Origin: Nitrosarchaeum sp.
GTDB lineage: Archaea > Thermoproteota > Nitrososphaeria > Nitrososphaerales > Nitrosopumilaceae
DNA: 20,874 bases
Assembly: GCA_023265135.1 (NCBI GenBank)
Contig: JAHFUM010000004.1
Location: 92,422 to 113,295, forward strand
Direction of reading: 5' to 3'
Under the pieces are notes generated by a model. It did not search any database, was not told the origin of the DNA, and worked only from the letters and a program-made list of their open reading frames with translations. Position 1 is the first letter of the stretch. Every line of letters begins with the position of its first letter. Below, piece by piece: positions 8,857 to 20,874 of the stretch. Both the position numbers and the translations under genes were made by a program.

Positions 8857-9966
8857 TTAGATGTTGTAAGGTAATAAACGGTTATTCTTCTCTAAACAGT
8901 ATTCGGTTAATTTCTGAACCATAATCTTTGCAATTGTAATCTCTTGAATATTTTTTAAACCATCTTTTGTTTTTGCTCCATGCCTAAACTCATATCGTCT
9001 TTCTTGTTGGAATGTTCTTTCCAATTTCTCCAAGAATCTCTTAATCAAAGAATCATTCATTACAACAAATCCGTCTTTGGAATGGACATAATCTTTTAGT
9101 CTAATTTGGCTTTTGTGATCTTTAATGTTCGCCATTTTGTAGACGGTAGAATCCACTAACCACCTAAACGACTCCATAATATCATACACTAGAGGTTGAA
9201 AACCAGTATGAGATTTATGATAAAATCCACAATATGCATCCAAACCAAATCCGTTTACAAACTTGGAAATCTCACCAGCTAGTACAGCATAGCCATAATT
9301 CAATAAAGCATTAATCACATCAGTGGCATTTCTTTTTGTTATTCTGACTACGGAATTACTCCTAGAGTTAAAGCCATATTTTTCTGGGATTAATTTGGCA
9401 AAATTCCTAAAATACACATGAGTAGATGATGCCTCTATTTTGATAGGAGAAATCGAGTAGTTTTCTATCTGTTGTAGATATCCTTCTAACTGAATAATCC
9501 CCTCTTTGACTTCATTTTTTTCAGTCATTTTGAGAAATCTAATTTGCGATTCTAGTTTTGCTTTTACTATTTGATTTTGTAGATAGAGGCGTTTCTCAGG
9601 GTCACGAAATGCATCATATTGAGCCATTCTGTATTTTGTAGCAGTTAGCGATTCCATCATGCCATTCATAAAAGAAACAGGCTTACCATGGGTATCTGTC
9701 AAAATAACATTTCTATTATTCTGATTTAGTAACTTGAGAGCATCAGTAGAGATGTAACCTTTACCAGAAATGACAATTTTCTCATAAGGTAACTGAGTGA
9801 TAAACCAAGATTCAGTTTCAGATTTGCCAGATAGAATATCGACTCCATTTTTTAGATTAATCTTGTTGTCTTTGAGAGAAATGGAGACTCCGTATCCACG
9901 GAGTAGTTTGACGTTATAGTGATTTTTGTGATTTTTTAGAGTCAAAGGATTAACATAGCCAACCAA
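8857..9966 (-). CDS. cas1: Cas1-family integrase (casposase), element A
   Basis: Cas1 core block ATDVINALLNYGYAVLAGEISKFVNGFGLDAYCGFYHKSHTGFQPLVYDIMESFRWLVD carries the conserved His and acidic residues. By eye about two-thirds identical to 11059-12132. The track start is TTG 9966. A TTG at 9945 gives MTLKNHKNHYNV, parallel to the paralog, and forms a TTGA overlap with the upstream stop. Confidence 0.9.
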   Translation of the reverse strand: MVGYVNPLTLKNHKNHYNVKLLRGYGVSISLKDNKINLKNGVDILSGKSETESWFITQLPYEKIVISGKGYISTDALKLLNQNNRNVILTDTHGKPVSFMNGMMESLTATKYRMAQYDAFRDPEKRLYLQNQIVKAKLESQIRFLKMTEKNEVKEGIIQLEGYLQQIENYSISPIKIEASSTHVYFRNFAKLIPEKYGFNSRSNSVVRITKRNATDVINALLNYGYAVLAGEISKFVNGFGLDAYCGFYHKSHTGFQPLVYDIMESFRWLVDSTVYKMANIKDHKSQIRLKDYVHSKDGFVVMNDSLIKRFLEKLERTFQQERRYEFRHGAKTKDGLKNIQEITIAKIMVQKLTEYCLEKNNRLLPYNI

Positions 9967-10415
9967 ATGAAAGGAATAAGACCCACAATAGTTCCCCAGA
10001 AAAAAAGCATGGTAAAAGAAAATGTGTCTTTTCCATCGATTTTATCTTCGATTTTACTTGTTCGTATAATTGTGATAATGTACCATGAAAATAACGCAAT
10101 TACTGTTGGTACAATAATTGCATAAGGATTATTAGGAAATGCCTCTCCTAGAACTTTATACGATACTTCAGCAGGAGTCAATACTAACATTAAAAGCTCT
10201 AATGATTCCATTGTCATTTTTGTACGTTTCTGAATCTTTTGATAATTTTTTATAAAATGAAAAAAAATTCCTACTAACGAAAAAATAATTGCTAAATAAA
10301 GACTTTGTACATCCTCGGAGGCGGAACTAAGTATATCTGAATAGAATTTACTGAAAAGAATTATTGAAATTATTAGAATAATGGCTAAAATGATCTTTGA
10401 TGTTTTTTTATCCAT
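9942..10415 (-). CDS. Small multi-pass membrane protein (about 4 TM), first gene inward from the right terminus of element A
   Basis: 157-aa ORF dominated by hydrophobic stretches (IILAIILIISIILF, LAIIFSLVGIFFHF, IIVPTVIALFSWYIITII, MLFFWGTIVGLIPFIWLAMLIL). Coupled to cas1. Confidence 0.6.
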   Translation of the reverse strand: MDKKTSKIILAIILIISIILFSKFYSDILSSASEDVQSLYLAIIFSLVGIFFHFIKNYQKIQKRTKMTMESLELLMLVLTPAEVSYKVLGEAFPNNPYAIIVPTVIALFSWYIITIIRTSKIEDKIDGKDTFSFTMLFFWGTIVGLIPFIWLAMLIL

Positions 10416-10491
10416 GTGTTATTTTATGAAAAGTTTATCTTATTCTTTACGACAAGCGTCAGATTTCTAGTCACAAATAGGGGGCATTCTA

Positions 10492-10510
10492 TTTTTATTC
10501 TCTGTCAATA
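10492..10510. repeat. Internal copy of the target-site duplication / aEF-2 3'-end fragment (tttttattctctgtcaata)
   Basis: 19/19 identical to 20612-20630. The core attctctgtcaata (14 bp, 10497-10510) is the reverse complement of the aEF-2 codons for I-D-R-E plus the first stop nucleotide. The T-run could belong to either the element termini or the duplication. Confidence 0.9.
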
Positions 10511-10589
10511 AAAAGGGAAATCCCCCCTCTTACGCATGATTTTAGGACACTTACTACGACATAACGAACAGTATGATTTGTTGGAAATT
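10511..10589. repeat. Left terminal inverted repeat of element B
   Basis: aaaagggaaatcccccctcttacgcatgattttaggacacttactacgacataacgaacagtatgatttgttggaaatt is the exact reverse complement of 20537-20615, verified base by base. Weaker similarity continues to about 10603 / 20522 with a 1-nt indel. Confidence 0.95.
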
Positions 10590-10621
10590 AGTTAAATCAT
10601 AATCATCGAGACAAAGACATT

Positions 10622-11047
10622 ATGAAAAAGACAATTGTCAATACTCTCTGTGTGATATTTTTAGCAGTTGGAGTAGTAAGTGTATTTTTGATCCTTTATG
10701 ATTATTTTGAAACCCCACACTTAATGTCCAAAGAACAAGCTCTTGCTCTAGCAATTAAAACAGGCAACTGGAGTGAAAATTTCCTTAAGGATAAAACTTT
10801 AGACATGAAACTGCTACACAAAAAAATCAATCAATTTGCATTCATTGTTGATGAAAAAACTTTAGAAGACATGATGCCGTTCTGTCCGCAAAACAGTCAA
10901 TGCATTGTACCTCAAGATCTAGGCAATGTTCTTGAAGACGAACAATATGTTTGGATAATTACAGTTCAAGGTCAACCACCTACTATTCTATCAGGTCATG
11001 AATGGGGATACATGATAGATGCTGAAAATGGCAAAGTATTACGATAA
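10622..11047 (+). CDS. Membrane-anchored small protein, possibly PepSY-like; first gene inward from the left terminus of element B
   Basis: N-terminal TM/signal anchor is LCVIFLAVGVVSVFLILY. KEQALALAIKTGN ... YVWIITVQG ... WGYMIDAENGKVL resembles the PepSY pattern. cas1 follows 11 nt downstream. Confidence 0.45.
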   Translation: MKKTIVNTLCVIFLAVGVVSVFLILYDYFETPHLMSKEQALALAIKTGNWSENFLKDKTLDMKLLHKKINQFAFIVDEKTLEDMMPFCPQNSQCIVPQDLGNVLEDEQYVWIITVQGQPPTILSGHEWGYMIDAENGKVLR

Positions 11048-11058
11048 TTTGTAATTCC

Positions 11059-12132
11059 ATGACTCTCAAAGGACAAACGAATCATTACAACGTAAAATTC
11101 CTAAAAGGCTATGGTCACTCAATTTCAGTTAAAGATTCAAAGATAATTCTCAAAGACTGTCATGATCCTTTCTCAGAACCAATCATAGAATCATGGTATG
11201 TCAAAAATATGCCCTATGAAAAATTAGTTCTTCAAGGAAAAGGCTACATCTCTACTGAGGCATTATCGTTACTTTCTGAAAATAATCGAAATGTGATTCT
11301 ACTGGATAATCATGGAAAACCTGTTACCTATCTGAATCCAGTAATGGAGTCCTTGACTGCAACTCAATACAGAATGGCACAGTATGACACATTTAGAAAT
11401 CCTGAAAAATGTCGATATCTATCAAGACAAATAGTCAAGGCAAAACTGGAATCGCAAATCAGATTTCTCAAATTAATTCAAAGAGATGAAGTCAAAGAGG
11501 CAATCTCAAAACTAGAATCACACCTTGCTGATCTAAACAGTATCTCTACTCCAATTCAAAACGAGGCAAAAACTACTCACATCTATTTTAGAGCATTTAC
11601 CAGATTAATCCCAGAAAGATACGAATTTCATTCAAGAAACCAATCAAAGATGAAAATATCAAAAAATCAGGCTACCGATGTAATCAATGCTTTGTTAAAC
11701 TATGGCTATGCCGTACTAGCTGGTGAAATATCCAAATTCATCAACGGATTTGGTCTAGACCCTTACTATGGATTTTATCACAAACCTCACACAGGATTTC
11801 AACCCCTAGTGTATGATGTTATAGAGCCTTTCAGGTGGCTAGTTGATTATACCGTATTCAAAATTGCAAACATCAAAGACCATACAAAAAGAATCAGATT
11901 GGATGAATTTGCTCACACCAGAGAGGGGGTAATAGTAATGGAGTATAATCTAATTAGAAAATTCTTGGAATTATTGGAAAGAACGTTTTCTCAAGATAGG
12001 AGATATGAGTTTAGACATGGGGCAAAGACGAAAGATGGTCTGAAGAATGTGCAAGAAATAACTATTGCAAAGATTATGGTTCAGACTCTTGCAGAGTATT
12101 GTTTAGGAGCACAAAAAGAGAACAGAATCTAA
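11059..12132 (+). CDS. cas1: Cas1-family integrase (casposase), element B
   Basis: The block ATDVINALLNYGYAVLAGEISKFINGFGLDPYYGFYHKPHTGFQPLVYDVIEPFRWLVD and the C-terminal RRYEFRHGAKTKDGLKNVQEITIAKIMVQ are shared with 8857-9966. Confidence 0.9.
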   Translation: MTLKGQTNHYNVKFLKGYGHSISVKDSKIILKDCHDPFSEPIIESWYVKNMPYEKLVLQGKGYISTEALSLLSENNRNVILLDNHGKPVTYLNPVMESLTATQYRMAQYDTFRNPEKCRYLSRQIVKAKLESQIRFLKLIQRDEVKEAISKLESHLADLNSISTPIQNEAKTTHIYFRAFTRLIPERYEFHSRNQSKMKISKNQATDVINALLNYGYAVLAGEISKFINGFGLDPYYGFYHKPHTGFQPLVYDVIEPFRWLVDYTVFKIANIKDHTKRIRLDEFAHTREGVIVMEYNLIRKFLELLERTFSQDRRYEFRHGAKTKDGLKNVQEITIAKIMVQTLAEYCLGAQKENRI

Positions 12133-12151
12133 TCAAATGATAATTGAATTA

Positions 12152-12901
12152 TCATTCCCAATCGGTATACAGTTTGTTGATACTAATTTTAAAAATTTCT
12201 GCAAAATTATTTAATTTTTCAAACAAGTTTTTTCGATTATCTATATTACTAATCCAAGTTTTCATAGTATCTCTGCTTGTTTGAAGAGATGTATTTGATA
12301 CTACATCTTTCTCAAAAACAGTTAACACATAAGGCGTCTCTGGCTTATTTTTCTCAACAAATAATTTTTGTAATTCTGATACTTTATTTGGAGTACTAGT
12401 TCCAAACCATTGAAATGAATCTATGATTTCTCTATATGCATCATTGACTTTCTTCTCTTCCTCTGGTGTAGAAAGTAAAATCAAACCTCCATCATTAAGT
12501 ACAAATCGCAATCGTACGCCATAAAAAACCGCAGTAAGATATAGCATCCTAGTTGCCTGATCATCCGTTACAGTATTGTTATCTTTAATTCGTTTTACTG
12601 TGTCTGCAAGGGATAGTGCTGAATTTATCCATGCATTATAATGAGTTTTAATAAATGGGAGTATCAGATCCCATTTCTTGGAGGCGTTCTCACTTCTAGC
12701 CGTATAATATGAGGAGAATTCTTTGTACACCGCAGAAAAGATAGTGCCCAATAAAGTCAAGATTCCGCCTACAATAGTTGCCTTTGAAGCAATATCTGTT
12801 ATCGAATATATCCCAATGAAATAATTTGCAAGAGAAATTGCAAGAAAACTTGCAAAAATTCCACATCCAATAAGAACAGATAACCTTTGTATTCTTTTCA
12901 A
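12152..12901 (-). CDS. Membrane protein (2 N-terminal TM helices + soluble domain), unknown function
   Basis: 249-aa ORF. TM segments are LSVLIGCGIFASFLAISLANYFIGIY and ATIVGGILTLLGTIFSAVY. Confidence 0.55.
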   Translation of the reverse strand: MKRIQRLSVLIGCGIFASFLAISLANYFIGIYSITDIASKATIVGGILTLLGTIFSAVYKEFSSYYTARSENASKKWDLILPFIKTHYNAWINSALSLADTVKRIKDNNTVTDDQATRMLYLTAVFYGVRLRFVLNDGGLILLSTPEEEKKVNDAYREIIDSFQWFGTSTPNKVSELQKLFVEKNKPETPYVLTVFEKDVVSNTSLQTSRDTMKTWISNIDNRKNLFEKLNNFAEIFKISINKLYTDWE

Positions 12902-13057
12902 TTGCTGTTAAATTCAGATTCTACCTAATGTAGTTTTCAGGTTTCTCACAACAACATTTGTGTCAATACTAAATTGAGTATCTAGCACGCAATCTGAATC
13001 TCAAAACTAATGTATTGACCATGATCATTTTATTAACTTCATATTAAAAATAACATT

Positions 13058-13213
13058 ATGACAAAAAAATGTCAGAAATTCTGCGATACAAATAGAAATT
13101 TGTCTCTCCTTGAAATTTCTTTTGCGGATGATGATTTGACAGATTTTTCGTTTAAAGTTTGTAAACGGATCACTCCAAAATTTCTAAAAATTTCATTAAA
13201 GGAGGAGACTTGA
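13058..13213 (+). CDS. Unannotated 51-aa ORF immediately upstream of the PIN gene (antitoxin position)
   Basis: Hand-translated as MTKKCQKFCDTNRNLSLLEISFADDDLTDFSFKVCKRITPKFLKISLKEET. Its stop at 13211-13213 is 1 nt before the PIN ATG (13215). It is below the ORF-track size cut-off and I recognise no homology. Confidence 0.3.
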   Translation: MTKKCQKFCDTNRNLSLLEISFADDDLTDFSFKVCKRITPKFLKISLKEET

Positions 13214-13214
13214 A

Positions 13215-13778
13215 ATGGTAAAAAAGATTACAATTTACTTAGATACAAATATTTTACGTGATGCGATGGCACGTAGAAACAAGGATTCTACATATTGGTT
13301 GAACCGAATAAAAGAAAAAAATTGGACTTGTATAACTTCTGTTTTAGGAATTACCGAATTGATAGATATTGATCAGGATCACTTGTATGTCAACAGACAA
13401 TTATCAAGGCATGTTGATTTTGATCGTATATATCGTGATAAATATCATAGGAACCTTGATGTTTCTGAATTTCAAACAATAAAAGATGCTGTGAGTAATT
13501 TTTTATCCGAATATTCATTTATCAAAGTAGTTTCTTTAGATGATGATGCCTGGAAATTATTTCTGCATATATCGTCAAACTCAAATCTGTTTTCCCCCGA
13601 TGCAATACATTTAGCTGCTGCATGGAGAAACAATGCAGATCTAATAATAACATCAGATGCCCATTTTATTGAAGAGGGAACAAAATTGTTAGAACAAGAA
13701 AAAGTCAAATCAAAGTTAAGAATATGTAATCCTCAACAAGTTCGGAAAACTTTAAAAAAAATGAAGGTATGTGTTTGA
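13215..13778 (+). CDS. PIN-domain nuclease (VapC-like)
   Basis: The four acidic positions typical of PIN are present: IYLDTNIL, GITELIDI, SPDAIHLAAA, IITSDAHF. A GGAGGA motif lies 8-9 nt upstream of the ATG. Confidence 0.75.
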   Translation: MVKKITIYLDTNILRDAMARRNKDSTYWLNRIKEKNWTCITSVLGITELIDIDQDHLYVNRQLSRHVDFDRIYRDKYHRNLDVSEFQTIKDAVSNFLSEYSFIKVVSLDDDAWKLFLHISSNSNLFSPDAIHLAAAWRNNADLIITSDAHFIEEGTKLLEQEKVKSKLRICNPQQVRKTLKKMKVCV

Positions 13779-13779
13779 A

Positions 13780-14601
13780 ATGATCGATAAAAATCCGCCA
13801 TTAAAATGGATAGAAGTAGACAAACTAGAATTGTGGGAGGAGGCAAATGTAAGAAAATCTGATCTTTATACCGATTTTGAAGATTTAAAAAACAACATTA
13901 AGCAAAACGGCATTAAAAATCCTTTACTTGTTTCAGGTAAAACAAAAAATGGAATATATCGTGTTTTTAGTGGTCAAAGAAGATTGCTAGCAGCTACTGA
14001 TGCAGGATTAAAAACAGTACCTTGTTTCATACATGAAAAAATAACATTATCTGAAGCACAATTACTCTCTTTCAGTGAAAATCTATTTCGATTAAAAATG
14101 AACTATAACGATATTGCCGATGCTGCAAAAAAATTTCTCGAGCATTTCAAAAATCGGAAATTAGTTGCAAAAGCGTTAGGAGTTTCTGAAAATACGGTGA
14201 AACGTTATTTGCGATATGAAGATGTCCCAAAAGCAATTAAAGAATTGGTTGGCAAAAAGAAGCTTTCTTCTAAACAAGCGATGGATCTATATTCAAAATT
14301 CCCTGATCAAGATAAATCTATACGAATCGCTAGAGAAATATCCAGAATATCTTCAAGACCTCAAAAAAAGAATCTATACTATGCAGCAAGATATTCCGAA
14401 CCAAAAGATACTGTAGAATCAATTCGTAAAACAGCTAAAAAGATGAGACCTTTTACAAAATATGTTATTGAAATCCCTCCAAAAGAAAATGAGATAATTC
14501 AGAAAATTTCTAAAAAGAAATCACAGAAACCAGAAGACACAATAGTTGAAATATTAGAAACGGCAATAGAAGCATTTGGAAAAGGGGTTATTGATTTATG
14601 A
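13780..14601 (+). CDS. ParB/Srx-like N-terminal domain protein with HTH
   Basis: IEVDKLELWEEANVRK ... GIKNPLLV ... YRVFSGQRRLLAATDAGLKTVPCFI is the ParB N-domain GxRR box. The HTH is LVAKALGVSENTVKRYLRY. ATG 13780 lies 2 nt after the PIN stop; the track start is GTG 13771. Confidence 0.75.
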   Translation: MIDKNPPLKWIEVDKLELWEEANVRKSDLYTDFEDLKNNIKQNGIKNPLLVSGKTKNGIYRVFSGQRRLLAATDAGLKTVPCFIHEKITLSEAQLLSFSENLFRLKMNYNDIADAAKKFLEHFKNRKLVAKALGVSENTVKRYLRYEDVPKAIKELVGKKKLSSKQAMDLYSKFPDQDKSIRIAREISRISSRPQKKNLYYAARYSEPKDTVESIRKTAKKMRPFTKYVIEIPPKENEIIQKISKKKSQKPEDTIVEILETAIEAFGKGVIDL

Positions 14602-15137
14602 ATGAAGAACGAGCAATTGCAATAATGTTTGCAAATCTAAAAGGAGGTAAGAAGAAACCATCTAATTTAATTGAATTTGCTGATGCATGTAGAACATTAC
14701 AAAATAAATGGAAAGGAGGGTTTAAAGAAATGTCTGATTTTTTCAAGGTTTCACAATACATGTTACGTCAAATTGATAAAATTAATGAACTTGATGATGA
14801 AGTAAAAAAATTAGTTAAAGCCCATAAATTAGGAATTGATGCATCATATCAACTTTGGAGAATTGATGCAATAAGAAGAAAAGATGCAATGAAAATCATC
14901 CCGTACTTAACAACTGAAGAAATACGCTCATTTGTAAATTTACTTCATAAATTTCCAAAAAAATCTGTCGCAGAATGTAAAAAAGAATTTGAAAAAAACA
15001 GAGATAAAAATATTCATCTATTAGTAATTCCGCTACAATCTGAAGAATTCAAAGAACTATCGAATATTGCTAAAGAAAAGAAACTGAGTATCCATGATTT
15101 TGTATTAAAAATAATAAAAAATTCTATTAAATCTTAG
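14598..15137 (+). CDS. Helical DNA-binding-like protein (ParB-HTH-like middle, RHH-like C-terminus)
   Basis: ATGA overlap with the ParB-like gene. FKVSQYMLRQIDKINELDDEVKKLVKAHKLGIDASYQL resembles the ParB/KorB HTH-linker region. The C-terminus EEFKELSNIAKEKKLSIHDFVLKIIKNSI resembles a ribbon-helix-helix. Confidence 0.45.
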   Translation: MNEERAIAIMFANLKGGKKKPSNLIEFADACRTLQNKWKGGFKEMSDFFKVSQYMLRQIDKINELDDEVKKLVKAHKLGIDASYQLWRIDAIRRKDAMKIIPYLTTEEIRSFVNLLHKFPKKSVAECKKEFEKNRDKNIHLLVIPLQSEEFKELSNIAKEKKLSIHDFVLKIIKNSIKS

Positions 15138-15907
15138 ATCATACATTCACTACCACAAGGACTATCTACATCCACCATGGGCAATTTCTTTTTCTGTTTC
15201 ATCATTTTATCTATTTCTCTAAGAGAGTATCCCTTTGGAGCAAGTCTCTGTGTTTCAAAGTGTTTACCACTTTCTTCAATTTTCATTGAATATTTGAATA
15301 GGTCGGGATGTTTTTCATGTATTTCAGCCCATCTGTCCATGTTATTGTATGGACAGAAATAACACCCACTCTTTACAGGAATTGGTAATCGTGCTTTTTT
15401 AATTAGATCAATGCAACTCTCACGATTAATTTTGTAATCAATCAATGGGTACAGATTAGTTACATAATCCACTCTTGCAGGCTTCATTCGATGTACTTCA
15501 CCATAATCAATTCCCATGTATTGATATACATGTGAATTTAGTTTACGATAAAACGCATGGATCGGTAAAACTTTGAAGTCTCTAGTACACCATCGCCAAA
15601 CTTGAGATGGAATAACTTTACGGCTCAAACATTTATCTGATAATGATATTTTTTTTCGGTTCTGAACAATTTCAAACGAAATTCCTTTTCTTTTTAGATA
15701 TTTTCTCATTACATCTAGATACTCGTATGTTTCTGGCATTTCATCGCCAGTATCAGAAAATACCACATAATCAAGTGGAAAATCATTTTTTACAAGAAAT
15801 ACGATTAATGCTGTAGAGTTTATTCCGCCACCATAACTTACAATATATTTTGCATTTGTCTGACGTACAATTCCACGCGAATCAAGCATTCTTTCTTGTA
15901 CTAGCAT
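15134..15907 (-). CDS. PAPS-reductase-family PP-loop ATP pyrophosphatase (DndC/IbrA-like)
   Basis: PP-loop is YIVSYGGGINSTALIVFL (SGGxDS-like), followed by VVFSDTGDEMPETYEY. Cys-rich C-terminus has GCYFCPYN and SPCGSECMI. Its stop overlaps the convergent 14598-15137 stop. Confidence 0.8.
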   Translation of the reverse strand: MLVQERMLDSRGIVRQTNAKYIVSYGGGINSTALIVFLVKNDFPLDYVVFSDTGDEMPETYEYLDVMRKYLKRKGISFEIVQNRKKISLSDKCLSRKVIPSQVWRWCTRDFKVLPIHAFYRKLNSHVYQYMGIDYGEVHRMKPARVDYVTNLYPLIDYKINRESCIDLIKKARLPIPVKSGCYFCPYNNMDRWAEIHEKHPDLFKYSMKIEESGKHFETQRLAPKGYSLREIDKMMKQKKKLPMVDVDSPCGSECMI

Positions 15908-15909
15908 TA

Positions 15910-16014
15910 TCCTGCATTCTCCTGCATTCTAATAGATCTCATAGTAAAATTTTCCTGCATTTCAGGTAAAACTTTCCTGTGTTGATTAAAAATTCTTCCT
16001 GCATAATCCTGCAT
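15910..16014. promoter_or_regulatory. Array of five perfect TCCTGCAT boxes (plus one degenerate) directly upstream of the PAPS-reductase-like gene
   Basis: Boxes at 15910-15917, 15920-15927, 15953-15960, 15997-16004 and 16007-16014; degenerate tcctgtgt at 15975-15982. Two pairs have exact 10-bp spacing. Confidence 0.55.
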
Positions 16015-16363
16015 AAGCCTAAATCAAAAAATTTGCTGATTTACACGAAAGTTAACCAATCCGGCATATCATGTCAATTTTGTTTGGTTTAATTGCAAAA
16101 ACAAGAGTTCTTTGATGCCATGATAAAACAACATTCAAAATATCTACGCCTAGAAAATACTCCGGTTAAAATCAAGAAAATTTTTTCATGTTTTTGTTTT
16201 ACAATACAATCACACTCCACCAACATTTTTTCCATAAAAAATAAATAATCCACATGATGTTCATAAATTTTTTACAGATAAACGAATCATCTAATAACGA
16301 ATATGATAAAATGTATTTTTGATTTTTAAATATTTTTAGTGCTATAAAACTTTCATCATATTT

Positions 16364-17206
16364 TCACCTGAGATAAATTGATTTTTCATGGTACTTTGAT
16401 TTTGATGGTTTATCCAAGTCTTTTATTAAATTCTCTTCATACAATTTAGGATTCAGAATTGAATCTACCAAATGATATAATGTGGTTATTTGAGTATTTT
16501 CATTTTTGCTCCACGTGCCCCAAAACATTGGGCTAATCATAAGGCTTGTAACGTAGTTTATAATATCGCTTAAATTGTTTGATGATCTTTTACCAGAAAT
16601 CTTGTCTAGTGTTGCTCTGAATTTTCTTAGTTCTGATTTTTCAACGGATGAAAAATGAACCGCCAGTGCAGGAATTACGCTTTGTCCTATTATTGATTCG
16701 TTATAGCTTGCAATGTTTATCAAGTTGTTTTTTATTCCGTTGATCAATCCCTGTAAGATGATCTTATCACACAAGTCATATTTTGCTCCCTTTTTTTCAA
16801 GACTTAAAATTAACTTGTAAAATGGATTTACCTCTGAGTTTTTTTCTAGCATTGCTCTCAGTTCCTCTTTTTTAAGAGGAAGTGACAATACAACAAGACT
16901 TCCTCTAAAGGACAACCCATACGTAGGAATGTTGTTTCCTTTTGAAAATCTTGTGCCAATCTGCCTGACATATTCTTGTGGAAGCATTCTTTCATTGATG
17001 TTTCTGTAAACACCACTTTGATGTCTTTTTATTGTCGATGATTTACCTGAAGAGTCTTCCCAGATTTCAATTTGCGAGTAAAAACGAGAAATATCCCACG
17101 TAGTAGATTCCCCCTCTATTGCCAAACATTGCATCATTCGGGCACGAAAATCATAATCTTTACCTGAAAATAGGATTACATTTGATATGGGTTCTTGTAA
17201 TAGCAT
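16364..17206 (-). CDS. Hypothetical protein, possible wHTH regulator
   Basis: 280-aa ORF. The N-terminal region ...TWDISRFYSQ...SGVYRNINERMLPQEYVRQIG...YGLSFRGSLVVLSL looks like helix-turn-helix plus wing. Divergent (33-bp gap) from the operon leading to pPolB. Confidence 0.45.
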   Translation of the reverse strand: MLLQEPISNVILFSGKDYDFRARMMQCLAIEGESTTWDISRFYSQIEIWEDSSGKSSTIKRHQSGVYRNINERMLPQEYVRQIGTRFSKGNNIPTYGLSFRGSLVVLSLPLKKEELRAMLEKNSEVNPFYKLILSLEKKGAKYDLCDKIILQGLINGIKNNLINIASYNESIIGQSVIPALAVHFSSVEKSELRKFRATLDKISGKRSSNNLSDIINYVTSLMISPMFWGTWSKNENTQITTLYHLVDSILNPKLYEENLIKDLDKPSKSKYHEKSIYLR

Positions 17207-17239
17207 ACCATTATGTAATCATAACTCTAATTATACTTT

Positions 17240-17509
17240 ATGTCAAAGTATTCCTCAATGAAAGCAAAACATACAGATTGTAGCAAGACTACAACAAAAC
17301 AAAACCAAGTCCATAACGATACAGTAGTTACGGTATTTGGAAAAAGAACGATTGTAAATCAGAATTTTTCAAAACTGATTGCATTGCCAAAAACAGCACT
17401 AGAAAATCTAGGAAAAAACATCAAACAAGTTAGCGTGGAATTGGTTCAAGAAAACAATTCCAAGTACATCCGACTTGTTCCAATCACTGGAGGAGGTGAA
17501 ACTAAATGA
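17240..17509 (+). CDS. Small protein, possible AbrB/SpoVT-like DNA-binding domain
   Basis: KLIALPKTALENLGKNIKQVSVELVQENNSKYIRLVPI resembles the swapped-hairpin AbrB/MazE pattern. ATGA-type overlap with the next ORF. Confidence 0.4.
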   Translation: MSKYSSMKAKHTDCSKTTTKQNQVHNDTVVTVFGKRTIVNQNFSKLIALPKTALENLGKNIKQVSVELVQENNSKYIRLVPITGGGETK

Positions 17510-17835
17510 GCACAAAGAATTATCCTCCATTTCTAAAATGGGGAGACTACAAAAGCATAAGCAAGAAACAGCCAGACATAATCACTATTGAGATAGTTGA
17601 TCCTGAGCCATTCCAGACCCAGTATGACTGGAATGTACTTGTAAAGATGGATGGAATTGAAACAAACATTCCATTGAGGGCAAAGTCTGCAAACAAAAAA
17701 CTCTACAGACAGTACATGCGTCTGCTACGGGAAGGAAAAATCAAGAATGGAACAAAACTGACCATCGAGACATGGTTGGGCAAATCATCAAAGCATCCAG
17801 ACTTTGATTTAAGAGATTTCATAGTGGTCGTATGA
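17506..17835 (+). CDS. Hypothetical protein
   Basis: 109-aa ORF, 4-nt overlap with the upstream ORF, GGAGGAGG 8 nt upstream of the ATG. No recognisable motif. Confidence 0.5.
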   Translation: MSTKNYPPFLKWGDYKSISKKQPDIITIEIVDPEPFQTQYDWNVLVKMDGIETNIPLRAKSANKKLYRQYMRLLREGKIKNGTKLTIETWLGKSSKHPDFDLRDFIVVV

Positions 17836-17865
17836 TCACTTTATCTCTTTTTTTATGTGGGTAAA

Positions 17866-18204
17866 ATGAAACAAAACAAATCTAAAGAAAAACTGCTAGA
17901 GCAACTGGAAGCACTAAAGTTATTTCCAAAAAATAAACTTGCATCACAATTACGAAAACAAATCCAAGACAAACTAAAGAAACTGGAAACAAAAAAATCA
18001 CAAGAGCCATCAAAAGAAGAAAAGAAGAGACTGACAAACCAAACCCGCTCAGGAAAGATGCGAAGATACCATAATTATATCAGGCAAATCAGAAACAACT
18101 TTCCAAATTATTCCTACAAACAGATTAGGAGCCAACTATCAAGACGCAAAAAACAGGAATCAGTACCAATCCCCGATGTAATATGGCAGAATCCATCCCC
18201 GTAA
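17866..18204 (+). CDS. Small lysine/arginine-rich coiled-coil protein coupled to pPolB; homolog of 1384-1761
   Basis: ATG at 17866 (the track start is GTG 17857). Overlaps the pPolB start by 22 nt. Shares a C-terminal conserved block ending VIWQNPSP with the element A protein. Confidence 0.7.
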   Translation: MKQNKSKEKLLEQLEALKLFPKNKLASQLRKQIQDKLKKLETKKSQEPSKEEKKRLTNQTRSGKMRRYHNYIRQIRNNFPNYSYKQIRSQLSRRKKQESVPIPDVIWQNPSP

Positions 18205-19961
18205 GCGAGTCATTTAGACTAGATCACCTCTATACAGGTAGTCGCCAGAGAAGGGATCTGGCAAAATCATGCCTAAAGCCAGTCACAGCCATAGATACAG
18301 AGACATGGAAAGGAGATATCTTCCTGATGGCAGACTCTGACGGAAATTATCTTGATGATATTTCCATTAATGCTGTAATCCAGTTTCTGTTTTCTAAAAG
18401 ATACCAGAACACTTGGAATTTTTGCTATAATTTGGGATATGATGCCGAAGTAATTCTAAAACTATTAGATGATAAATTAAAAGTATACAAAAGATCAAAT
18501 GATCTAAAATTCAAATTTGATGATTACAAAATAGCATATATTCCTGACAAGGTTCTGCGAATTACAAAAGGGCATCATTCAGTTTCGTTTTACGATATTG
18601 CACAATACTATCACACATCACTAGAAAATGCATATGAATCAAACATTGAAAAATTACCTGACTGCTACAAACAATTCAAAGGAAAAAGGCATCAATTATC
18701 TCCAAGCTATTATTCACATAACAGAAAAAAAGTCAGAGATTACTGTATCACAGATTGCATCCATACAAAGAAACTAGCAGAGCACTGGGTTTCAAACTTT
18801 TATGATGCATTTTACTTTTATGTACAAAAATGGATATCATCAGGGTACTGTGCAGAAAAAGTTCTCATAAATAACAGAATAGAGATTCCAAAGTTCACTG
18901 AAACCCCGTATGATGTACAAAAGATGGCATGGAGTGTAGTTGATCATGGCGGAAGATTTGAGATAACAAAGCGCGGATTAATCGGAAATGCATTTCTTTA
19001 TGATATAAATTCGGCATATCCCTATGCACTAACGCAGATTCCAGATATCACAAAAGGAAGATGGGTAAAAAGAAAATCAATTCACAAAGATGCCAAGCTT
19101 GGATTTTTTAGAATTTTGGCTGATATCCCAATATCAAAACACATCTGCCCGTTTCCATTTAAGAAAGGGCACAGAATATTTTTCCCATCAGGAGAATTTG
19201 AAACAATAGTAACCTTACACGAATTGCAGTCATGTGAGAATTCATCATTTTACAAGATTCTTGATTCTTGGCAGTTTATCCCCGAGCCTGAAACCTATCC
19301 TTATAGAGAGTTTATCTCAAATCTATACCAAAAGAGGCTCAAACTAAAGCAGGAAGACAACCCAATACAATTACCGCTAAAAATTATACTAAACTCAATT
19401 TATGGCAAGACAGGTCAGACAGTAAACAACAAAATCGGCAATTTGTTTAATCCTGTGATTTTTGTCACCATTACTGGAATTATTCGCGGTTTATTGTACA
19501 AATTTGTGATTCAAAATCATATAGAATTTGATACGGTGGCATTTGCAACTGATTCCATACTAACTACAAAAAAACTAGACTATGACTCTACAAAGTTAGG
19601 AGAATTTTCTTTTGATAATATGGCTGATGATTGTTACCTGTTACAAAATGGCTATTACAGAATGAATGGAAAATGGAAAAACAGAGGAATTGCATCAATG
19701 AGTGGAAAAACAATTGAACATCTTGATACCATACAGAGAAATGGGAAATTATTTTTAAAAATTCAAGAGTACAGAAACACAAGACTTCGGTCGGGAATTA
19801 TCCTGAATCGAATATCTGAAATTGGAAACATCAAGCATACGTTTCGTTGGATTGATCCTAACGCAGACAAAAAAAGATTCTGGCTGGGTAAAATATCGAA
19901 AATAGACGATACCAAAAATGATTCAATGCCTTTATCACTAAACCACATGGCAAAAGAGTAA
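18183..19961 (+). CDS. polB: Protein-primed family B DNA polymerase (pPolB), element B
   Basis: Exo I TAIDTET, Exo II YNLGYDAE, Exo III YCITD, motif A LYDINSAYPYAL, motif B KIILNSIYGKTGQ, motif C VAFATDS. By eye about half identical to 1758-3632. Confidence 0.9.
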   Translation: MAESIPVSESFRLDHLYTGSRQRRDLAKSCLKPVTAIDTETWKGDIFLMADSDGNYLDDISINAVIQFLFSKRYQNTWNFCYNLGYDAEVILKLLDDKLKVYKRSNDLKFKFDDYKIAYIPDKVLRITKGHHSVSFYDIAQYYHTSLENAYESNIEKLPDCYKQFKGKRHQLSPSYYSHNRKKVRDYCITDCIHTKKLAEHWVSNFYDAFYFYVQKWISSGYCAEKVLINNRIEIPKFTETPYDVQKMAWSVVDHGGRFEITKRGLIGNAFLYDINSAYPYALTQIPDITKGRWVKRKSIHKDAKLGFFRILADIPISKHICPFPFKKGHRIFFPSGEFETIVTLHELQSCENSSFYKILDSWQFIPEPETYPYREFISNLYQKRLKLKQEDNPIQLPLKIILNSIYGKTGQTVNNKIGNLFNPVIFVTITGIIRGLLYKFVIQNHIEFDTVAFATDSILTTKKLDYDSTKLGEFSFDNMADDCYLLQNGYYRMNGKWKNRGIASMSGKTIEHLDTIQRNGKLFLKIQEYRNTRLRSGIILNRISEIGNIKHTFRWIDPNADKKRFWLGKISKIDDTKNDSMPLSLNHMAKE

Positions 19962-20128
19962 TACTTGTCAAAGTTTTGATAATTTGATAATTGTTAATTT
20001 GATACTGATTTAGAGTAACAAAATGATATGCATGACAAAATCAAAAATCATTGTATGCTTGATAATCGTGCCTGTCAAGACAAGATTTTCATGCTTGACA
20101 AATGATTGACAACCATCATTTTGCCATT

Positions 20129-20245
20129 GTCAGACAATGACAAATTAGTGACAGACAATGACAAATTAGTGACAGACAATGACAAATTAGTGACAGACAA
20201 TGACAAATTAGTGACAGACAATGACAAATTAGTGACAGACAATGA
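20129..20245. repeat. 21-bp tandem repeat x about 5.6 (unit gacagacaatgacaaattagt) inside a wider TGACA(A/G)/TTGTCA motif field
   Basis: Units start at 20129 (1 mismatch), 20150, 20171, 20192 and 20213, with a partial unit at 20234-20245. Confidence 0.95.
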
Positions 20246-20536
20246 TTTGACATGTCTGAATTGTTGTCAGGCTTGTCATGGTACTAATTAGTCATTATCA
20301 CAAATTTGTTTAGGTTTGTCATGACAAGTATTAGACCAGTTCTTTTAACATTTCATAATATTGTCTGTTTATGATCTTTTTCTTATAGAGTTTCTTTTTT
20401 AGTTCACAGATGTTATCCCTCTTTTCCAAGTCCATAAAATAATACAGGTTAGAAAAACAAGGATTTAATGGTGTAATGGTTTTTCTGACCCATCAACGTC
20501 ATAATGAAAATCATTACTTACATTATGATCTTAAAG

Positions 20537-20615
20537 AATTTCCAACAAATCATACTGTTCGTTATGTCGTAGTAAGTGTCCTAAAATCATGCGTAAGAGG
20601 GGGGATTTCCCTTTT
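20537..20615. repeat. Right terminal inverted repeat of element B
   Basis: Exact reverse complement of 10511-10589. Confidence 0.95.
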
Positions 20616-20630
20616 TATTCTCTGTCAATA
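20612..20630. repeat. aEF-2-proximal copy of the target-site duplication (tttttattctctgtcaata)
   Basis: Identical to 10492-10510. Contains the aEF-2 stop codon (20615-20617) and the last four sense codons. Confidence 0.9.
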
Positions 20631-20874
20631 TATTCGTCAATACCAGGAGGCTCTGGTGCAAGCCCCTTTCTCTTTCTAATTTCTGCAATTGCAGTGGAAG
20701 CTATGGATTTTGGAAGTTCAGTCCATGCCTTAAAGGAAGTATTCCAGGTTGCACGTCCAGCTGTTTGACCTCTCATTGCTTCAGAAAGTGTAAATGTTTC
20801 AGCTGCTGGAATTTCGCCAACAATAATGCTAGCAGCTCCTTTTTGAGACATATCTAGTACCTTTCCACGTTTTC
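20615..20874 (-). CDS. fusA: Translation elongation factor aEF-2, C-terminal fragment (gene continues beyond the right window edge)
   Basis: The frame is open to the window edge (..KRGKVLDMSQKGAASIIVGEIPAAETFTLSEAMRGQTAGRATWNTSFKAWTELP...GIDEYIDRE*). This is the EF-2/EF-G domain V / C-terminal pattern (IPVAE.F.....LR..T.G.A). GC content is visibly higher than in the elements. Confidence 0.9.
   Translation of the reverse strand, partial: KRGKVLDMSQKGAASIIVGEIPAAETFTLSEAMRGQTAGRATWNTSFKAWTELPKSIASTAIAEIRKRKGLAPEPPGIDEYIDRE

Follow-up and report, generated by a model that had tools for sequence, protein, structure and literature searches.

We analysed a 20,874-nucleotide stretch of DNA from Nitrosarchaeum sp. 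(assembly GCA_023265135.1, contig JAHFUM010000004.1, positions 92,422 to 113,295 of the forward strand; the whole stretch is hereafter called the window), in which the 3' end of the aEF-2 gene is occupied by two adjoining mobile elements, A and B. Of the two, element B, about 10.1 kb long (window ~10510-20616), is very probably a structurally complete family-1 casposon of this Nitrosopumilaceae archaeon, that is, a self-synthesising DNA transposon. It is an additional member of a published casposon family, whose type, target and integration chemistry are already known, and, judged by sequence comparison, its match to the published family-1 casposons covers everything in the finding reported here. 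The preliminary description of the window had proposed a casposon with intact cas1 and polB genes at the aEF-2 3' end, which is borne out by the Pfam matches, the alignment of the catalytic E/H/E residues and the PolB motifs.

The borders of B are marked by perfect terminal inverted repeats (TIRs). The left, cas1-proximal TIR (10511-10589, + strand) is the exact reverse complement of the right, polB-proximal one (20537-20615, - strand), with 79 of 79 positions matching in a position-by-position comparison, as had been claimed. In full, the perfect inverted repeat measures 83 nt (10507-10589 and 20537-20619), reaching 4 nt farther outward by virtue of the AATA/TATT on the outside of the flanking repeat, which happens to be self-complementary, while past the inner edge of the TIR the similarity falls sharply, to 85 matches in the first 100 nt. 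Shuffling the mononucleotides of the window 30 times gave perfect inverted repeats of 14-20 nt at most, against the 83 nt observed. Next to the TIRs stands the direct repeat TTTTTATTCTCTGTCAATA, whose left copy (10492-10510) and right copy (20612-20630) are identical at 19 of 19 positions, again in agreement with the earlier claim and including the overlap of the right copy, which shares four T (20612-20615) with the right TIR arm. A direct repeat of 19 nt somewhere in the window is unremarkable alone, since the shuffles yield 14-19 nt; the non-random feature is that both copies abut the outer ends of the TIR arms exactly. The left copy is also the junction between casposons A and B. It had been described as the border of B itself and does adjoin the TIR of B, but it is shared with casposon A in a tandem array.

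Between the TIRs, B encodes the two core enzymes of a casposon. The casposase, a Cas1 homologue of 357 aa (11059-12132, + strand), matches Pfam Cas_Cas1 with E=7e-52, and its closest solved relative is the Methanosarcina mazei casposase 6opm (E=8e-27), with which the catalytic E, H and E align as identical residues. The protein of B is shorter (357 aa vs 431 aa for 6opm), the alignment stops at residue 278 of 6opm, and Pfam finds no helix-turn-helix (HTH) family in it. With an N-terminal fragment (110 residues) of a published family-1 casposase it shares about 78% identity, a figure that is approximate since the reference was read by optical character recognition from a 2014 supplement. The second enzyme is a protein-primed-type family B DNA polymerase (18183-19961, + strand; PF03175 DNA_pol_B_2, E=2e-20), an uninterrupted open reading frame (ORF) of 592 aa that reads outward to the right end, with motif matches consistent with Exo I-III and with motifs A (DINSAYP), B (KIILNSIYG) and C (FATDS). 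Motif C thus has the form [F/Y]ATDS, in which the first aspartate of the canonical DTDS is replaced by alanine, and the same form occurs in both PolB genes of the window (1758-3632 and 18183-19961) and in the related loci L003, L005, L006 and L032. Judging from this distribution, ATDS is a conserved family trait, not a lesion.

Directly upstream of polB lie three small ORFs of 89, 109 and 115 aa (17240-18204, + strand), for which tblastn gave matches in related casposons, among them L001, L003, L006 and element A, where the homologues are in the same position. These ORFs and the two core enzymes are conserved across the related loci; the cargo is not. Pfam, PADLOC, PHROGs and a repeat scan gave no tyrosine or serine recombinase, no Cas2 or other cas genes and no CRISPR array, and Rfam and tRNA scans of the window returned nothing.

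The right end of B is joined to the last codons of aEF-2, whose 3' end (20615-20874, - strand, ...PGIDEYIDRE*) matches PF00679, the EF-G C-terminal family. The size of the duplication made at this target can be approached through the family-1 casposon NitAR1-C1, in which the genomic repeat is 22 bp and the duplicated segment is just 13 bp, ATTGATAAAGAGT (Wang 2021, PMC8464041). In that system a 3-bp TTT leader is enough, with T-1 critical and T-2A tolerated, AAA is required after the target-site duplication (TSD), A1, A11 and T13 are important, and ATAA at positions 5-8 acts as a ruler (PMC8464041). Aligned by codons, the two targets read GAG TTT ATT GAT AAA GAG TAA AAA in NitAR1 and GAA TAT ATT GAC AGA GAA TAA AAA in the window, so that A1, A11 and T13 of ATTGATAAAGAGT are conserved and the leader ends in T. 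From this alignment we infer that the duplicated core of B is the 13-bp ATTGACAGAGAAT in the aEF-2 sense (ATTCTCTGTCAAT on the + strand), with a distal copy at 10497-10509, between the TTTTT of the B end and the AAAAA of the A end, and a proximal copy at 20617-20629, within the right direct repeat. Under this model the TIRs would be 80 nt long (10510-10589 and 20537-20616).

The remaining six identical nucleotides of the 19-bp repeat are explained by the A and T runs at the element ends together with the leader T. All termini of the group open with a run of 4-5 A and close with the complementary T-run, the 3' end of the B TIR reading ...CCCTTTTT-3'; at the distal junction, the T-run of B imitates the leader T and the A-run of A imitates that of B. 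The preliminary description had given a TSD of 14-19 bp. Its view of the repeat as a casposase-type duplication stands, whereas the size of 14-15 bp, which was taken from the family-2 casposon of A. boonei, gives way to the 13 bp indicated by homology to the family-1 NitAR1 system. In the stop codon TAA of aEF-2, the T (20617) closes the TSD while the AA (20616-20615) comes from the terminal A-run of B, and the host aEF-2 protein is therefore unchanged.

These features lead us to propose the following course of integration. The Cas1-type casposase would join both TIR 3'-OH ends at staggered positions flanking the 13-bp ATTGACAGAGAAT, which comprises the last four aEF-2 sense codons and the T of the stop codon, with a leader ending in T on one side and AAA on the other, and gap repair would then copy the 13 bp. 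The proximal A-run would restore the TAA stop, and the distal end would remake a minimal TTT|TSD|AAA target. Because the A/T runs of the termini would rebuild the target in this way, the genomic repeat would appear as 19 bp and elements could pile up in tandem at the site; a regenerated target would thus favour tandem arrays. The protein-primed PolB is presumed to copy the excised or linear element from the TIR ends, which would keep the two arms identical. For the integration step, purified NitAR1 casposase catalyses concerted integration of TIR oligonucleotides, specific to a plasmid with a reconstituted EF-2 target (Beguin 2019, PMC6614799). The in vitro test suggested in the preliminary description is therefore already published for this relative (PMC6614799, PMC8464041).

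On the distal side of B lies casposon A (window 1-10495), which is inverted relative to B and whose aEF-2-side terminus, ...GGGGGCATTCTATTTTT, ends at 10496. Casposon A encodes its own protein-primed PolB (1758-3632, + strand), a DUF4062-STAND NTPase (3657-5495; PADLOC candidate PDC-M54A), a Cas1 (8857-9966, - strand) and further ORFs of 752, 363 and 157 aa. The two casposons are arranged head-to-head, with their cas1 genes pointing away from the common junction. The second TIR and TSD of A were sought throughout the window and in a further 2.8 kb to its left in the contig k141_8178559, with no match exceeding what shuffled sequence gives. A 342-aa LEA_2-like gene is found in the part of L018 that lies to the left of the window (11204-14087), and as its homologues adjoin casposon termini in L019 and L042, A probably exceeds 13 kb and runs off the contig. 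At the left edge of the window (1-121), a 531-aa ORF with a weak Peptidase_M10 match has, at its 3' end, a 35-bp AT-rich tandem repeat in 3.5 perfect copies; in this tract the ENA contig and the window differ in sequence.

The A/B junction, TTTTT|ATTGACAGAGAAT|AAAAA, is a complete minimal target by the published criteria. Since this junction recreates the TTT|TSD|AAA target, the order in which A and B were inserted would not be deducible from their position. It is possible, if somewhat doubtful, that B came first and that A was later inserted into the distal TSD copy, in which case B is not the youngest member of the array. The junction fits the published TTT, 13 bp and AAA as well as the native TAT|...|AAA or better, and the published minimal leader is only 3 bp. 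Analogy with CRISPR and with the A. boonei system, which requires a leader of 15 bp (PMC6614799), would nevertheless favour insertion next to the gene. That no second TIR of A was found in the available contig is compatible with A being older, being rearranged or running off the contig.

The aEF-2 3' end is occupied in the same manner at other loci. A Cas1-based scan of species-representative genomes gave 12 loci, 11 of which belong to Nitrosopumilaceae, Nitrosotalea, Nitrosarchaeum and other thaumarchaeal metagenome-assembled genomes, the remaining one being a distant bacterial match. A metagenome scan with a first pattern for the aEF-2 3' end, GACGAATATATTGACAGAGAATAA, returned no matches, and a degenerate pattern returned 31 loci. 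At about 20 metagenomic and 5 genomic sites a casposon terminus directly follows aEF-2, with the junction GARTA|AAAA..CCCCC. The termini are of two types, AAAATAGNAT.CCCCC, which is A-like and corresponds to the published NitAR1-C1 type, and AAAAGG....CCCCCC, which is B-like. Tandem junctions of the form ...TTTT|TSD|AAAA... are present in L001, L003, L005 and L007 as well as in the window, and the orientation relative to aEF-2 varies: the cas1 end is proximal in L001, L029, L032 and L039, and the polB end in B, L003, L025 and L043. The casposon L001 c1, whose Cas1 is 89% identical to that of B, has the opposite orientation. One locus, L041, is an apparent empty site (GAATTT|ATTGACAGAGAAT|AAAGAAG, followed by an ordinary small ORF), and L035, L050 and L007 contain decayed termini, degenerate TSDs and duplicated aEF-2 3' fragments. 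Some 25 loci show that casposons make heavy use of the aEF-2 3' end in Nitrosopumilaceae, a hotspot where arrays, insertions in both orientations and decayed relics occur and which holds elements of very different ages, B being at the intact extreme.

Two of the decayed sites have a complex structure. In L050 (1-1130) the aEF-2 3' end is followed by a truncated terminus, a duplicated aEF-2 3' fragment of about 235 nt, a further terminus, a degenerate TSD carrying the stub of a B-like terminus, and a host antiporter gene. In L035 (3900-4700) the functional aEF-2 end and about 690 nt precede an older aEF-2 3' end to which a casposon terminus is attached; L035 had been considered as an empty site and was rejected as such because this second, older end and its casposon terminus lie ~690 nt downstream of the stop. 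These duplications exceed the length of a TSD and suggest further activity at the aEF-2 site, by other integrative elements or by recombination. A search for homologues of the aEF-2 fragment returned only partial gene calls, with one informative contig, L050. Several loci from the metagenome scan (L030, L036 and the group L022/24/27/44/45/47/49) are without aEF-2 similarity and were taken as chance matches to an AT-rich 21-mer. The seven metagenome contigs L022, L024, L027, L044, L045, L047 and L049 are of freshwater type and belong to one tailed-phage-like genome with HNH and portal-like genes; they contain GAATATATTGACAGAGAATAAAAG, a 23-nt identity to the aEF-2 end and stop that was judged a chance match to an AT-rich word.

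B is likely to be structurally competent for transposition, and the chances that it has moved recently are about even. The preliminary description had called B recently integrated and possibly active. This is plausible in view of the perfect repeats, the intact ORFs and the decayed relics elsewhere, but a perfect TIR is found in L001 c1 too. There are no substitutions in the 2 x 79 nt of TIR and the 2 x 19 nt of direct repeat of B, and its perfect TSD and TIR contrast with the decayed TSDs and termini at the aEF-2 site in L007, L050 and L035.

Several points weigh against reading B as a complete casposon that may still be mobile. Its PolB has ATDS in place of DTDS in motif C, so that polymerase activity is a prediction from motifs, and a terminal protein was not identified in B. 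The 13-bp stagger is borrowed by homology, and where NitAR1 has the ruler ATAA (positions 5-8) the target of B has ACAG, so the stagger may be one or two bases longer or shorter. Neither an empty or B-less allele of the strain nor a second copy or a free linear or circular form was found in GTDB species-representative genomes, metagenomes or IMG/VR. B is contained in four data sets, which in essence amount to a single clone (100% identical outside the tandem repeats) and for this reason are uninformative on polymorphism.

The recommended check for presence/absence polymorphism in metagenome assemblies found B in place in every assembly reached, with no polymorphism in what is essentially one clone. 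The exact 36-nt terminus of B had no match in GTDB species-representative genomes. In IMG/VR, the conserved inner-TIR 17-mer gave unrelated matches only, the PolB of B had no relatives, and there was no sign of a virus-like or free form of B. A contig of 50-200 kb that contains the 157-aa protein of A and lacks the Cas1 of B was considered as a B-less allele and rejected; it carries a different element, without the exact Cas1 and the 299-aa protein of A.

A less mobile history for B must also be weighed, namely that the element is genuine but old, fixed and immobile, its perfect TIRs and TSD being due to slow mutation, gene conversion or short time. We regard this as unlikely, though well worth considering: every accessible assembly has B in the same place with no sequence variation, the genome and metagenome scans found no same-strain empty site or extra copy, and L001 c1, from another species-level genome, also has a perfect TIR over 77 nt, so that perfect TIRs are not rare in the group and perfection alone is no clock. 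Against such an age speak the absence of any substitution in the TIRs (158 nt) and the direct repeats (38 nt), the full-length cas1 and polB ORFs with their catalytic motifs, and the state of other arrays at the site, which are decayed in L007, L050 and L035, while L003 c1 retains just 25 perfect nt.

That the 19-bp repeats are instead the attL and attR sites of a tyrosine or serine recombinase, and not a casposase TSD, is very improbable. The aEF-2 3' end is apparently used by other integrative elements, as seen in L035 and L050 with duplicated fragments far exceeding a TSD, and three ORFs of B (249, 179 and 280 aa) are without annotation; however, Pfam, PHROGs and PADLOC detected no recombinase domain in the ORFs of B, the position of the repeats directly against long perfect TIRs is the signature of a transposon, and integration into the homologous site has been obtained in vitro with the casposase of a relative (78% identical over 110 N-terminal residues). 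There is next to no chance that the inverted repeat or the tandem layout is an assembly chimera, although repeats of 79-83 nt are able to mislead short-k assemblers and the Logan unitigs break at the repeat of B, for MEGAHIT contigs with k=141, longer than the 83-nt repeat, cross both junctions with identical sequence, the left junction is crossed in two more samples, and the homologous elements L001 and L003 share the layout.

Specifically, the MEGAHIT k141 contig ERZ27279942:k141_8178559 (23.7 kb) contains the whole structure, with both junctions identical in sequence, and differs from the window solely within two tandem-repeat tracts. The left junction, A|TSD|B, is also identical in short contigs from ERZ27279937 (L016) and ERZ27279977 (L017). 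Among the Logan unitigs of SRR14366796, L015 corresponds to window 92-10536 and L013 to window 10560-20160, each at 100% identity; both stop 30 nt inside the 83-nt repeat, which fits a real inverted repeat if k = 31, as we assumed. The repeats and junctions of B are not an assembly artefact, and the concern about a chimeric assembly that had been raised for the window is settled by the k=141 contig and the two further samples, which give identical junctions.

The remaining genes of the casposon B are mostly cargo. Upstream of cas1, a 141-aa ORF (10622-11047, + strand) with an N-terminus, MKKTIVNTLCVIFLAVGVVSVFLILY, that looks hydrophobic has a weak, sub-threshold PepSY match and no counterpart in the fetched relatives. 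Downstream of cas1 follow a 249-aa ORF (12152-12901, - strand), a PIN-domain protein of 187 aa (13215-13778, + strand; PF01850, E=5e-8), a ParB-like protein of 276 aa with an N-terminal ParB domain and an HTH (13771-14601, + strand; phrog_4715, E=3e-28), a 179-aa ORF (14598-15137, + strand), an SspD-like protein of 257 aa with the PAPS-reductase fold (15134-15907, - strand; PF01507; PADLOC SspD E=6e-34; phrog_424 E=4e-43) and a 280-aa ORF (16364-17206, - strand). The ORFs of 249, 179 and 280 aa have no family match in Pfam, PADLOC or PHROGs. The block from 13215 to 15907 (PIN, ParB-like, 179-aa and PAPS reductase) has no homologues in the other fetched casposon loci, and PHROGs places the ParB-like and PAPS-reductase proteins in phage protein families.

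In addition, the polB-side end of B contains the relic of a cas1-proximal end. On the inner side of the right TIR, a dead cas1 start (MTLMGQKNHYTIKS...; 20463-20519, - strand) reads MTLMGQKNHYTIKSLFF*, with its upstream sequence retained, and this relic is identical at 52 of 57 nt to the TIR-cas1 join of L001 c1. On the basis of this match the right end of B would derive from a cas1-proximal end, and the relic suggests end-to-end copying or recombination between inverted neighbours. The other modules have a mixed relationship as well. The TIR of B is closely similar to that of L001 c1, and the Cas1 proteins of the two are 89% identical, whereas their PolB proteins share only 42% identity; the PolB of B is 57-58% identical to those of L003 and L006. 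In L039 a B-like TIR is joined with a Cas1 nearer that of A. Such mosaicism, in particular the 89% for Cas1 against 42% for PolB, suggests module exchange.

The 575-nt non-coding sub-terminal region at the polB end is rich in TGACA/TGTCA and contains 5.5 perfect copies of a 21-bp tandem repeat (20131-20245, + strand; CAGACAATGACAAATTAGTGA). TGACA recurs every ~10.5 bp, that is, on one face of the helix, and the region 20020-20330 has ~24 TGACA/TGTCA motifs per 300 nt, against an average of 0.6 per 200 nt. The copy number of the 21-bp repeat varies by assembly, with three fewer copies in the ENA contig. The repeat unit matches the 15-nt integration target TATTGACAGAGAATA at 12 of 15 positions. 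A target-like TGACA array was considered as a family feature and rejected, as it is absent from the relatives checked and specific to B. As a guess, it may be a putative binding array for an element-encoded DNA-binding protein.

To our knowledge, few intact family-1 casposons have been described. B is one more intact element; its type of terminus, its variant of the target and its cargo set (PIN, ParB-like and SspD-like PAPS reductase) are new, and it has a head-to-head tandem partner. Since this target variant is without the published ATAA ruler, the ruler model finds in it a natural test case. B leaves the present understanding of casposons and of their integration unaltered.

The closest known systems are the family-1 casposons NitAR1-C1, NitSJ-C1 and NitAR2-C1, with which B shares the Cas1 casposase and the protein-primed PolB. 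In the 2014 description, NitSJ-C1 and NitAR1-C1 are given as 8.2 kb elements in EF-2 with a 68-bp TIR and a 21-bp direct repeat overlapping the TIRs by 8/6 nt, and NitAR2-C1 with a 71-bp TIR (Krupovic 2014, PMC4046053). B is larger than this group (10.1 kb vs 7.6-8.2 kb), its TIRs are 79-83 nt long (68-71 bp in the group) and share the AAAA..CCCCC start, and its terminus is AAAAGGGAAATCCCCCC instead of AAAATAGAATCCCCC. In both, the genomic repeat (21-22 bp in the group) overlaps the TIRs and the last aEF-2 codons are hit. The target of B, ATTGACAGAGAAT, differs from the ATTGATAAAGAGT of NitAR1 in step with the C-terminus of the host aEF-2 (IDRE vs IDKE) and is without the ATAA ruler, and the leader ends in TAT where that of NitAR1 ends in TTT. 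The cargo of B, with its PIN, ParB-like and SspD-like PAPS reductase proteins, is unlike that of the group. Two tandem family-1 casposons in ef-2 are reported for Ca. Nitrosopumilus adriaticus NF5 (Krupovic 2019, PMC6563490); their cargo comprises OLD, NERD and HNH nucleases, XerC and two Cas4 genes, whereas here A carries the DUF4062-STAND NTPase and B the PIN, ParB and PAPS reductase proteins. Family 1 has 3-4 conserved genes upstream of the protein-primed PolB (PMC6563490), to which the three small ORFs of B correspond.

Family-2 casposons (AciBoo-C1 and M. mazei) resemble B in the staggered integration by Cas1, the short TSD and the use of the 3' end of a conserved gene. They differ from B in the PolB type, the tRNA-Pro target, the TSD of 14-15 bp and the longer leader; their casposase has a C-terminal HTH and is longer than that of B. 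In A. boonei this leader includes TCAAATC 9-15 bp upstream (PMC6614799), and for M. mazei, tandem arrays and recent mobility are documented according to work cited in PMC6563490.

The tandem arrangement at aEF-2 also invites a comparison with CRISPR arrays. The CRISPR adaptation module is presumed to descend from casposons. We tentatively consider that the A5/T5 termini are adaptive, restoring the stop codon and remaking the target, and that the aEF-2 3' end may act as a self-extending, non-polarised array of 13-bp 'repeats' and whole casposons in either orientation, in which inverted neighbours swap ends and modules; this is possible, yet we would not expect it to hold. The exchange of ends and modules among neighbours would fit the dead cas1 start in the polB-side end of B and the contrast between 89% identity in Cas1 and 42% in PolB with L001 c1. 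If the idea is true, the aEF-2 array would stand, as a natural intermediate, between site-specific transposons and CRISPR arrays. As in CRISPR adaptation, the integrase is homologous and obeys the logic of leader, repeat and ruler, each insertion duplicates the repeat (here the TSD), and the inserts lie between identical short repeats. Unlike in CRISPR, there is no Cas2, CRISPR array or effector gene, the inserts are whole mobile elements of 8-14 kb, and each casposon insert regenerates a minimal leader, so that insertion need not be polarised.

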